64,000 bases of DNA, taken from contig CAUYUJ010000326.1 of the NCBI GenBank assembly GCA_963575745.1, positions 1 through 64,000 on the forward strand, given 5' to 3'. Each line of letters starts with the position of its first letter. The first letter of the stretch is position 1. The position numbers and the translations under genes are program-made. Under the pieces are notes generated by a model. The model made no database searches. It had not been told where the DNA came from and worked only from the letters and a program-made list of their open reading frames with translations. This stretch comes from Prorocentrum cordatum (taxonomy: Eukaryota). Of the stretch, positions 13,215 through 20,782 are shown in pieces.

Positions 13215-13576
13215 AGGACAGAGAGAGAGAGACGGGGGGAAAGAAATAAAGGGGGGGCCGGTCAGAACCAAGGAGAACACGGTACGAGGAGGGGGGGGTG
13301 AATGAGGAAAGGCGCAAGCCAAAGATCCCAGGAGAAGACATACAGGAGAAGACAGACCGTGGACGCAAGAGGAGGAGGAGGATTTTTTTGCCGCTGCGCT
13401 ACTCTGCCGCGAGTGGTCGCGGTCCTCCTGGCGGCCAGCCAGGCAGCCGACGAGCACGGCACTTAAGACGCTGCCAGCGCAGGATTGTTCCATGCACGCT
13501 GGCCGACCCGCAATGGCAGGCCACGCGACAGGGCCTTGCCCCCGTGGCGACTGCCAGGAGGCCCACCCGTCGGGCG

Positions 13577-16500
13577 TCAATCAAATAACCGCACCACACT
13601 GAGAGCATCCACGTCGAGCCAAATAAAGTCGCTCTTCGGGTGCTTGCCAGACAGGAGACGGTTCCAATATGAGGCCGCCGAGCGGGGGCAGTGCGGCTTA
13701 CCATTGCAAACTTTGTTGAGATAGCGCACGTAGCCCCCAGTTGAAAAAAGCCTTACACTTCAGGCAGATACACAAAGCGCTACCGCCAGAGCAAGACAGG
13801 GCAATGCACTTGTGGCCAAGCTCTATGAGCTTGGTGTCATAGAGCTTGTGGGTGTGACGGCAGACACTGTTGGGAGGCCAACAGGACCTGGACACCCTCA
13901 AACATTGCTTGCACTGCCAGTAGCCGTCCCTATGCACCCAAGAGTGGCTAATCTTGGGAGCGGACACGGCGGGCTCCCGCTGCCCACGCGTGGCCTGCGA
14001 CAGATCACACGCGGGCCAGAGCGGCAGCATCCTGGCAGCCAGCACACACACTTTCTTAGCAATCGAAAGGGCTCGATCGAGCCATTCAGACTGCTCGGGG
14101 CTCGGCCTCTCGTGAGCCAACGCCCCGAGCTTGGCGTCGTGATCAGCTAGGTCGTTCCCAGCCTTACAAAACCGCAAATGATCATCCCCTTGGGCCTGTT
14201 CTTCGGTCATGTGACCTTTGACCTTGAAAATCTGGCCCATTTCAGAATCAGCCGTCCAAGCAAACATTCCAGCGTGCACCCGTTTGAAAGACAACTGTTC
14301 TGAGCGGGGGAGGGACCACACCTGTGCAACATTCTGACAATCACTATAACCACATGACGGTTCCAGGGCATTCTGGCAGGCCGCCGTACAAGCAGCGAAC
14401 TCACCAGCCTGAGCCGTTTGCGGGATGGGGAGGGGGAGGGGAGCGTACACATGACCCAACTCTTGCCCGGAATCGGAGACCGAGACATACGACCACCCCG
14501 TCCGCGACAACTCCCGAATGACCGACTTGATGCACGAACCGTCCATAAAAAAATAAGACCTTTCACAAAATAATCATCACGACCAGGGTCACTGGCATGA
14601 TAAACAGTAGGTTCAGCAACAGTAGGGGCTGGAAAGAAATCACCAGGATGAGACATAATCCCCATGGTGAACAGAAACTGATCGTGCTTCGATAGGGATG
14701 ACCATGCTGGGGAATGGTATTGAAAGTCATCCCCTAAAAGCTCGCGGCGCAGCTCGGCACAGGACTCGTGCACGCACTTCCACAACCTGTGGAAAATCGT
14801 GTCCTGCCCCTTGCCGCGCAGGGGGCAGAGCAAGCCGGGCACAATGTAGCCGTGCTCTGACGCTCTAACCTTGGTCCACGGAGACTGACGGACGAGCCCG
14901 CGGATACAGCCTTTCTCCCAAGGCGTGAACTTAGACGAAGCCATAGCACGGAGCGGCACGTCTAAGCAAGCACGTCGCTCAAGACCAAGGCTGTCTCCGT
15001 AGGCACGCTCATGAAATCTGAAAACGGCGAGACGCAGCAGACGTTTGAGGAGGGCAGGAGAGACAAGCGTCAACTGAACTTCCACCCCCAAATCGTCAAC
15101 CAAGGTAGGGAAAGAGGGCATCTTCCACCCAAGACGCTCCACGGACAACCTGAGGGCCCCAACGGGGCCTCCAACCTGCCTCCAGGAGGGGGAAGGGCCC
15201 GCAAACACAGTACTCCAAGCCCCCCTGAGCTCGGCCAAGCTGAGGCCAAACTCGAAGGAGGCCGTCAGGCTGGCCCAGATTTCTTTGGACCAGCGCACGA
15301 TCGGGGCCACGGCGCAATACCAAGTGGGGTCGGCGGCGAACAGCAAAGCTGCAGTGAGAGATCGGCCTCCAGCCGAAGGGCTGAGAAACCGTCCAAGGGA
15401 TCGCCGCAAACTCGCCAACTCATTGTCGGAAGTGCCATGCACCTCACAGCCATAAGTTCTGCTGGCCAAGGGGCCACTCGTATATATACGCTTGGCGTGT
15501 CTCCCCAAAGCATTCCTGTGAACCCTCAACCTATGACATTTAGTTTTGAAGGCCTTCTTACGAATCTGAATCTTAGCTCCTCTCCTGGCCGTCCGCCGAG
15601 GCTTGCCAGCAGCGTCGCCAATGCCCAGGTTGACAGCAGATGCGCAAGGAGCTCCGCCCACAGCGCCAAGGCCTCGGCGGATCTCCTTAGCCACTAGAGG
15701 GACTGAGGCGACCACAGCCGCCTTGCTAACAGAAATCGAGCAACCAAGATCGGACTCGATGGCCACCTGCAATCGGAAAGCAGCTTCGATCAGGTCCTGT
15801 ACGACGGCCTTGGGAGCCCCCGTGCACGACAAGGTGTAGTCATCGATGTAAACTCTCAACGAGACCGATCTAGGGATGCTAAGGCCGTCTAAGGCAGCTA
15901 GCGTGAAGACGAGAATGAAAGTGGTGGCGAATCCACACCCAGCAATCAAACCTCGCCACGCAAACTGCGGGCCCTCCACGCGGCCGTTCATGGCCATGTA
16001 GCGGCACGAGCGGTAAGCCTCGCAGCAGACCCTGGCAATCTGCATGGGAAAGGAATGCTGGTGACAACGAGCGAGGAGCGAGTCGAGGTCGACAGCCTCG
16101 TAGAACTTCAGAAGATCCCACAGGACAGACCCAGAACAGTCCTTGGAAGCCACAGCAACCTCGCTCCTCACTCCTTGCCTCCAGACGGTATCGACACTGG
16201 AGGCAAAAGCGCCAGCACAAAAGTATTCTCGGGCATTGGCCACTTCCCACTGCCGAGCAAGGTCTCGCCTGGCGCGGGCCCACAAACGATGCAGGGCAAC
16301 GAACAGTCCGATTGGGCGGTGCCCGCCACCGGGCTTCGCGAGCATAATAAGCAGCACAACTCTCATCTGACCAGGCAACAGACCCGAACGTTCCCAAATC
16401 GCAATCATGATCGGCAGCACCTGCAGAGCAGGGTCCGACAGATGCTGAAACGACCGAACATGAAAGCCATCCACAGAAGAGGCGGTACGAGCAGGAAACG

Positions 16501-19605: not shown

Positions 19606-19642
19606 CTTCAGCCAGAACGGCTTGAGCCAAAATGGATACGGA
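19606..19642 (-). other. Tandem spliced-leader relics
   Basis: TCCGTATCCATTTTGGCTCAAG (21/22) directly followed by CCGTTCTGGCTGAAG (12/15 match to the SL 3' 15-mer). Confidence 0.9.
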
Positions 19643-20782
19643 AGAGGAGGAGGAGGAGGAGGAGAAGGAGGAGGAGGACGGGAACGAGGAGGATGAGGGG
19701 GAGGAGCAGTTGGAGGAGCAGAGGAGGGCGGGCGGAGCAGCAGCAGGCAGCAGCAGCAGCAGCAAAGGGAGGAGAGGAGCAGGAGCAGGGGTAGGAGCAA
19801 GAGGGGGAGCAAAGAGGGCGAAGGAGGACGGTGGAAGGGAGAGGGGGGGGAAGGATCAGGAGAAGGAGGGAGCGGAAGACGAGCGAGGATGGAGGAGGAG
19901 GACGGATCGGAAGAGGAGCAAGGATGATATTGGACTCAGCCCGAGAGCGTCGTATCGGTTGAAGGTCGGGTTAACGAGCAGGCCCTGTTGCATGTGCGCT
20001 GGCCTGGCTATTATAGCCTCGATCATGTGAGCGCCTACTCGAGGGGCTGGAAGGTGCGCCCTACCCTCCTGCCAACTTCCTTCAGCCCAGCAGCCTACAA
20101 CTGACTCTTGCTTCTCATCGCTTCACATCGCCTCCACTGCCTGGCCTCGAGTTGCATCCCGCTGCTTGAGATTACCATGCCTGACTCTCCACTCCACCCA
20201 AGTCCTCTGCATTGTTGCCCAATCCGCTCTGGCCTGGTCAACTACACTTAGCATGGCTTGAATTCGTCTCCCCGTATACATCATATATACGAATGTAACA
20301 ATGTATCTATACATTACACGTGTGTGTGTGGATATACAGACACATATAGACATGTATGTACATATATATATATATATATATCATATCATAGAATGTTATA
20401 CCATAGCATAGCATAGCATATCATGTCATACCATATCACATCATATCATATCATATCATATGATATCAGAGGTGAAGGGGTGAGATAGCAGTGACACGGA
20501 GAGCACCCCAAAGGGAAACCGGTGTCGGTTTCGTGTTCGTGTCGTGCAAGCGGGAGGCGAGCTGCGTGGGCGCGCATGAGACATGATGCCGCCGTGGCTA
20601 GGGACTGTGGAGCCAGTTGTCCGCCACTCCCCCCAGCGCGCGGTGGCCAGGGATGTCCCGTCGGTGGCCCGTCGGTGTCCCGTCGGTAACCCGTCGGTGT
20701 CCTGTCGGTGGCGCGGCGGTGTCCCGCCGGCGACGCGGGGTGTCCCGTCGGTGGTGCGGGGCGTCCCGTCCGTGGCGCGGCG

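Follow-up and report, generated by a model that had tools for sequence, protein, structure and literature searches.

Some dinoflagellate genes carry DNA-encoded copies of the spliced leader used in dinoflagellates (DinoSL), and tandem spliced leader (SL) relics at the start of these 'recycled cDNAs' have been read as a record of repeated retroposition (Slamovits & Keeling 2008, as cited in PMC6050394 and PMC12014239). SL relics are given for >20% of dinoflagellate genes in a text that states the source of the reverse transcriptase (RT) to be unknown (PMC6050394); the guesses offered there and in PMC5585692 are Ty1/copia elements or LINEs (long interspersed nuclear elements). In the text of Song 2017 (PMC5585692), an enriched gene ontology (GO) term implies RT genes with SL relicts, which was taken there as a sign of activity. 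The main text on SymbioLINE, a LINE of Symbiodinium, has no mention of 'spliced leader' or 'DinoSL' (PMC5890265). Here we describe a LINE that begins with a DinoSL, found in 64,000 nt of Prorocentrum cordatum DNA (contig CAUYUJ010000326.1 of assembly GCA_963575745.1, positions 1 to 64,000; hereafter, the window).

We consider it very likely that this element is a retro-copy of an apurinic/apyrimidinic endonuclease (APE)-type LINE, copied from SL-capped, polyadenylated RNA, with a 5' end set by trans-splicing. A preliminary description of the sequence had proposed that the LINE cycles through SL trans-splicing and retrotransposition. An explicit report of a DinoSL-headed LINE bounded by a target-site duplication (TSD) was not found in open-access main texts; supplements may list RT genes with DinoSL relicts.

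Results

The spliced leader is part of the inserted unit

At 13383-19642, the minus strand carries a retrotransposon of 6.26 kb that is full-length in structure (Table 1). It has no long terminal repeats (LTRs), and it has the TSD and A-rich 3' end required for a LINE. The TSD is a 16-mer (AAGAGGAGGAGGAGGA on the plus strand, TCCTCCTCCTCCTCTT in the orientation of the element) whose copies at 13367-13382 and 19642-19657 are identical at 16/16 positions. This 16-mer is of low complexity and occurs five times in the window when both strands are counted. Within 9 kb downstream, the copy adjoining the SL has a single recurrence, immediately behind the A7 tail, and nowhere in the window except at the tail junction (13383-13389) do a purine tract and a T-run adjoin each other. 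Unique sequence follows beyond the second (3') TSD copy. The TSD shows that a (TCC)n microsatellite was the insertion target of this LINE.

Directly inside the TSD stands (T)CCGTATCCATTTTGGCTCAAG, at 19642/19641-19621 on the minus strand, which matches the DinoSL at 21 of 22 positions. The first T may count as SL position 1 or as the final base of the TSD, which is thus 15 or 16 bp long. With up to three mismatches allowed, the DinoSL was matched twice in the window and not once in 100 shuffles. The only mismatch is G7 to T, which changes CCGTAG to CCGTAT, so that the internal AG that yields 15-nt relics has been removed; this is the AG that the preliminary description had proposed as the next acceptor. 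Directly behind the SL, the relic CCGTTCTGGCTGAAG (19620-19606) shares 12 of its 15 positions with the relic core CCATTTTGGCTCAAG, for which hand arithmetic gives a chance of about 1e-5 at this fixed position. A possible third, older relic in the 5' untranslated region (UTR), GCCTTTTTGGC, is weak, its local alignment with the SL being reached in 2.6% of 500 shuffles.

The SL is enclosed by the two TSD copies and hence belonged to the inserted molecule. The inserted unit extends from DinoSL nucleotide 1 to the A7 tail within its TSD, so its template was a polyadenylated RNA with a trans-spliced leader. The truncated relic directly behind the SL means that the template in turn came from an earlier SL-headed genomic copy and was re-spliced at the internal AG. 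Reverse transcription of the window element from SL-capped RNA at least two times is well supported, and such copying is also seen in distant relatives. The SL, relic, TSD, open reading frames (ORFs) and tail named in the preliminary description are all present at its stated coordinates, on the minus strand. The 5' boundary that it gave, a 21/22 DinoSL set by the TSD, is borne out, and the SL plus relic at the start of a retrotransposed unit agree with its claim of at least two rounds of trans-splicing and retrotransposition. Its 15-nt relic is present but imperfect, with three mismatches, and its poly(A) is indeed an A tail, but one of only seven residues.

Distant relatives begin with the same leader

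Metagenome contigs were searched with a profile of ORF2 and four relatives that contained no SL information, and 39 loci (185,836 nt in total) were recovered. Scanning of both strands showed a perfect DinoSL (21/21) in 3 of the 39, L008, L020 and L023, in each case on the coding strand and upstream of the profile match. Exo_endo_phos was matched in L008 and L020; RVT_1 was reported only for L008 (E 1.6e-4), and L020 had no RVT_1 match at E<=0.01. L023 is a truncated copy in a 68-kb contig. The SL-bearing elements are 23-32% identical in protein over APE and RT, with unrelated N-terminal parts, and none of the 39 loci has a close DNA-level relative among the others.

In all three loci the base before CCGTAG is T, as it is before the leader of the window copy (CCGTAT), so the copies extend to position 1 of the leader. 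The sequence behind CTCAAG never begins with GT (4/4: window copy, L008, L020 and L023), which indicates that the SL exon alone was joined. A further locus with a 2549-aa ORF, L002, has TTGGCTCAA behind 'cctgcagg', next to a minisatellite flank. Because distant relatives begin with the DinoSL, SL capping is recurrent in this LINE group. The preliminary description had considered that other full-length copies might start with a conserved non-SL 5' UTR; the distant relatives came out the opposite way, with three perfect DinoSLs and the 3' half of one in L002. Apart from L007 and L036, whose upstream frames reach the contig start, the remaining loci begin inside the element or are weak matches, and in none of the 39 could a complete 5' end that lacks SL-derived sequence be demonstrated.

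The tails of the relatives are short (A6-A9), and several copies border on simple repeats: (CT)n/(AT)n at 1678-1761 of L023, (CA)n at 1-32 of L020, A6 followed by (GA)n at 7247-7266 of L027, and a 9-bp minisatellite at 1-113 of L002. This hints at insertion into, or survival beside, microsatellites in this LINE group. The 3' junctions of L008, L014, L022, L027 and the window copy share no insertion motif, only frequent simple-repeat flanks. An ORF1-based scan of the metagenome contigs matched 241 stretches and confirmed no relative, and a scan of viral contigs found none.

Older leaders lie inside the current ones

L008 contains a second SL, complete but decayed, 186 nt behind the first (17/20 positions, one gap), and L023 a second full SL 107 nt behind the first (17/19 positions). 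Each of these inner SLs was reached by 0/500 shuffles. In L023, 'tttatat' precedes the inner SL and (AT)n the outer one. Because both loci keep an older complete SL inside the current one, we infer that the 5' end would be fixed by the position of the trans-splice acceptor, in the old SL or in the upstream flank, rather than by a fixed internal start. It follows from the same copies that the 5' end apparently shifts between generations in this LINE group.

On the simplest reading, an SL-headed copy would have been resident in AT-rich repeat DNA and transcribed from upstream; trans-splicing at an acceptor in the flanking DNA would then have been followed by renewed copying with a piece of the flank attached. 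For the window element, joining of the fresh leader instead took place at the AG inside the old SL and left the 15-nt relic. Its template RNA was copied to the extreme 5' end and inserted into the (TCC)n tract in the manner of target-primed reverse transcription. A splice at the final AG of an old SL would go unmarked, so relic counts are minima. An Rfam scan of 13000-20100 found no ribozyme family, only sub-threshold microRNA noise, and the 5' 143 nt of the element have a folding z of -0.98.

Coding capacity and frameshift

ORF2 has an RVT_1 match at residues 659-867 (Pfam; E 3.9e-6, 27.2 bits, curated cut-off 29.6) and a weak Exo_endo_phos match (E 0.0047, 17.1 bits, cut-off 24.5), and RNase_H was found in the frame at 14546-13698 (E 3.6e-4, 21.2 bits, cut-off 25.8). 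ORF2 aligns with four APE and RT proteins, P0001-P0004 (E 3e-71 to 3e-62), in which Exo_endo_phos reaches 23.8-33.2 bits and passes or nearly passes the cut-off, and the RNase H region is in frame with RT in four distant protein relatives. In the Atlas, ORF2 fell only into generic RVT_1/Exo_endo_phos clusters, and its profile gave 0 matches to Protein Data Bank (PDB) sequences. Thus all three domains of the APE-RT-RNase H order in the preliminary description were matched, but RNase H lies in the -1 frame in the window copy.

ORF1 belongs to a family with 89 representatives at E<=1e-3 in a full HMMER search, 6 of them at E<=1e-30; these comprise near-identical fragments and full-length relatives at 32-42% identity. 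In an alignment of 12 sequences, it has an N-terminal zinc finger, W-x-C-x2-C-x-K-N-x(6-7)-CKHC, with an invariant CKHC, which may resemble RanBP2-type fingers. Behind the finger follow a coiled coil, an LFGE motif, a basic patch and a basic, Ala-rich tail. Pfam gave no family above cut-off for ORF1, only weak coiled-coil matches and no DNA methyltransferase (DNMT) match, and there were 0 matches among PDB sequences.

The window holds one copy of the element. Public DNA reads from four runs were assembled onto it at >=88% likeness; 58% of its sampled words occur in one DNA run and 6-24% in marine metagenome runs. Run X1 gave 300 short contigs, of which 70 are >=99% alike, 68 at 95-99%, 127 at 90-95% and 35 below 90%. 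Summed depth in X1 drops at both ends, with 12.7 in the 5' bin against ~70-190 in most body bins (lowest ~40). The element is one member of a diverged family with many copies; its host is a GC-rich dinoflagellate.

The frame of RNase H is offset by two bases from that of ORF2 in the window copy. At 14547, a version two A shorter makes up 38.5/58.9 of the summed contig depth in X1 and 2/2 in X5, and with two fewer A the RT and RNase H stand in one frame, as a single APE-RT-RNase H ORF. Compared with most copies of the family, the window copy therefore has a +2 homopolymer frameshift, located between RT and RNase H. The T TTT TTA heptamer (14547-14555, minus strand) resembles a -1 slippery site; programmed frameshifting there was considered and rejected, given the two fewer A in most family copies; the single RT/RNase H frame in the four distant relatives also contradicts it. 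The frame change is a mutation, not recoding. Since this frameshift precedes RNase H and the internal AG of the SL is lost, the window copy is probably dead. The autonomous full-length LINE of the preliminary description is thus full-length in structure, but the copy itself is not intact.

Table 1. Features of the LINE copy in the window and of the three loci with a perfect DinoSL
Sequence	Feature	Positions	Strand	Remarks
Window	3' TSD copy, minus-strand reading TCCTCCTCCTCCTCTT	13367-13382	.	exact repeat, directly behind A7
Window	oligo(A) tail, A7	13383-13389	-	junction of purine tract and T-run; relatives A6-A9
Window	3' UTR, 308 nt	13390-13697	-	between stop of RNase H frame and tail
Window	RNase H and Cys-rich C-terminal part of ORF2	13698-14546	-	-1 frame in window copy; Pfam RNase_H
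Window	homopolymer with frameshift, A7 on plus strand	14547-14553	-	most family copies 2 nt shorter
Window	ORF2 as read in window copy, 1367 aa	14210-18310	-	ATG at 18310; Pfam and aligned relatives
Window	RT	~15710-16336	-	within ORF2; Pfam
Window	AP-endonuclease	~17723-18172	-	within ORF2; Pfam
Window	spacer between ORF1 and ORF2, 25 nt	18311-18335	-	
Window	ORF1, 392 aa	18336-19514	-	89 representatives (E<=1e-3); in Pfam nothing above cut-off
Window	5' UTR, 91 nt	19515-19605	-	behind relic; possible third, older relic inside
Window	SL relic, 15 nt, CCGTTCTGGCTGAAG	19606-19620	-	12/15 to relic core
Window	DNA-encoded DinoSL, 22 nt	19621-19642	-	21/22 match; T at 19642 belongs to SL or TSD
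Window	5' TSD copy, minus-strand reading TCCTCCTCCTCCTCTT	19642-19657	.	runs on into longer (TCC)n tract
L008	DinoSL	76-96		5' flank unique sequence; SL to first ATG 315 nt; ORF 2292 aa, intact, APE and RT
L020	DinoSL	33-53		5' flank (CA)n; SL to first ATG 237 nt; ORF 2332 aa, intact, APE
L023	DinoSL	1762-1782		5' flank (AT)n; SL to first ATG 180 nt; ORF 943 aa, APE only

Surroundings of the element

Four 21-mers in the window lie within five mismatches of the SL, all on the minus strand (9892, 11567, 19641 and 47016), against a shuffle mean of 0.13. Two of them are further DNA-encoded DinoSLs, at 9872-9892 (18/21) and 11547-11567 (20/21), that head unrelated sequences. Each of the three full SLs of the window abuts (TCC)n on its 5' side, and all-purine 15-mers make up only 1.2% of the plus strand. 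Behind the SLs at 9872-9892 and 11547-11567 there is no Pfam family; a search for TSDs and A tails around these sequences gave only low-complexity matches, and no T-run of six or more occurs in 2500-11547. Truncated relic cores were also seen on the minus strand at 24550-24564 (14/15) and 46996-47016 (the last of the four 21-mers, 16/21 over the full SL). Relic cores on a common strand fit a co-oriented array of retroposed units.

Pfam analysis of 43 long ORFs in the window gave no family above cut-off except one low-complexity 'New_glue', and no host gene was recognised; Rfam gave no RNA family at threshold over the window. An 89-bp tandem repeat lies on the plus strand at 48300-48796 (5.5 copies) and 49690-50105 (4.7 copies), with 86-91% matches. 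Its unit includes CCATTTTGGCAC, a sequence similar to the core of the SL Sm site, and has no Rfam match. An assembly gap of 100 N is present at 50786-50885.

Discussion

A LINE whose 5' end is set by the splice acceptor could ride on read-through transcription of a co-oriented gene array, and it is plausible that such an element would need no internal promoter. It is also plausible that the endonuclease (EN) and RT machinery of LINEs is the source of SL-tagged host retrogenes. We put forward only tentatively, and with some doubt, the wider proposal that joins these ideas: a deep dinoflagellate LINE clade without a fixed internal promoter, cut from read-through transcripts by SL trans-splicing and carrying pieces of flank along, whose EN and RT would act in trans on SL-capped mRNAs as the engine of retrogene formation.

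Several observations weigh against our interpretation of the element. The full SL is present in only 3 of the 39 loci, most of the others ending short of the 5' end of the element, and L002 has just the 9-nt 3' half, which 6.6% of shuffles also reach. The 5' ends of L007 and L036 only likely lie off their contigs, their upstream frames running past the contig start. No TSD was seen around L008. The RVT_1 and RNase_H scores of the window copy are below the Pfam curated cut-offs, and the same-family read contigs are mostly ~300 nt and do not cover the 5' junction (19630-19700). The SL on present-day transcripts is a prediction from the DNA copies. Should every dinoflagellate mRNA be trans-spliced, the presence of an SL on a LINE would be uninformative on promoter loss.

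The SL relic could itself be a portable promoter with a TTT(T/G) core, in which case the LINE would be self-transcribed and re-capped at an AG in or behind the old SL, and read-through would not be needed. According to a proposal by Song et al. 2017, retrogenes obtain a promoter motif from the DinoSL, a role of the SL that is hypothetical in their text (PMC5585692). The TTTTGG core is kept in the window copy and its relatives. However, the newer SLs of L008 and L023 stand 186 and 107 nt upstream of the older ones, so those transcripts must have begun upstream, in flanking DNA, and we regard a portable promoter as unlikely, if worth serious attention. Template jumping is a known property of non-LTR RTs, for which U6/L1 chimeras are a precedent, and the RNA of an SL-less LINE could have been joined to the SL if the RT jumped from its 5' end to SL RNA or to another SL-capped mRNA. 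The spacers between the SLs of L008 and L023 could likewise derive from another mRNA. Against such a chimera, the 22-nt exon is exactly joined in 4/4 elements, with no SL-RNA intron and no GT behind it, and a truncated, in-register relic behind the SL is the signature of re-splicing at an internal AG; the inner SLs of L008 and L023 would still demand SL-capped element RNA. We therefore give template jumping very little credence.

That the LINE merely landed beside an existing SL relic, or targets SL RNA genes as do SLACS, CZAR and CRE, might be suggested by the two other SL-headed sequences on its strand in the window (9872-9892 and 11547-11567). Yet the SL belonged to the inserted unit, as the TSD outside it shows, the flanks consist of (TCC)n and not of an SL RNA gene, no RNA gene was detected by Rfam anywhere in the window, the endonuclease is of the APE type, and the SL recurs in L008, L020 and L023 amid unrelated flanks; such a positional association is hardly credible. 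It would be improbable, too, that the element is an RT-containing host gene passively retroposed by another element (e.g., Ty1/copia) rather than a self-propagating LINE. The GO term 'RNA-dependent DNA replication' is enriched among DinoSL-relict genes in the text of Song 2017 (PMC5585692), and the window copy is frameshifted. However, the architecture is that of a LINE, with two ORFs, APE-RT-RNase H, a TSD, an A tail, and hundreds of diverged contigs whose depth falls at the ends; the ORF1 family is conserved, with 89 representatives, and intact ORFs of ~2300 aa stand behind the SL in relatives.

We thus return to a LINE copied from SL-capped RNA. SL-headed LINEs, one TSD-bounded in the window and three distant relatives, two of them with intact ~2300-aa ORFs, show that LINE mRNAs enter an SL-capped, reverse-transcribed cycle. 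This makes the question of the RT source testable by comparing LINE insertions with SL retrogenes, and if LINE EN and RT do act in trans, they would be the engine of the massive recycling of SL retrogenes in dinoflagellates. Two considerations temper this. SL on full-length LINE copies would be a logical outcome if all nuclear mRNAs are trans-spliced, and RT-related GO terms were already seen among SL-relict genes, according to Song 2017 (PMC5585692).

Comparison with known systems

Like the SL-tagged retrogenes, the window LINE starts with a DNA-encoded DinoSL, behind which stands a relic cut off at the internal AG. Those retrogenes are host genes that borrow an RT, whereas the LINE is a member of a repeat family and codes for endonuclease and RT itself. 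SLACS, CZAR and CRE are trypanosomatid LINEs that have the SL RNA gene as their insertion site and a restriction-like endonuclease. The window LINE resembles them in its physical linkage to SL sequence but differs in that its SL lies inside the TSD, its flanks are microsatellites, its endonuclease is of the APE type and no SL intron follows the exon.

SymbioLINE (de Mendoza et al. 2018, PMC5890265) has Exo_endo_phos, RVT_1, RNase_H and TSDs in common with the window LINE. As described in that text, its UTRs are conserved at both the 5' and the 3' end, a poly(A) tail is absent and ORF1 contains a DNMT (PMC5890265). Compared by description only, the window LINE differs in having a zinc finger and coiled coil in ORF1, an A7 tail and an SL at the 5' end. 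In Schistosoma mansoni, six gene models related to transposable elements have an internal SL and were tentatively read as trans-spliced and retro-transcribed (Boroni et al. 2018, PMC5832876). The text of that report states assembly chimerism as an alternative, and has no TSD-bounded full-length element, relics or comparison across relatives (PMC5832876).

The L1Tc and ingi elements of trypanosomatids share with the window LINE a host that trans-splices, long co-oriented arrays and the problem of defining a 5' end (PMC1874656, PMC3383444). L1Tc is described as having the internal promoter Pr77, a hepatitis delta virus (HDV)-like ribozyme and unspliced transcripts (PMC1874656, PMC3383444). Unlike L1Tc and R2, the window LINE has no 5' ribozyme detected by Rfam in 13000-20100, and it begins with the host SL. 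Such a start would be a third way for a LINE to define its 5' end in polycistron-like transcription, next to an internal promoter or a 5' ribozyme.

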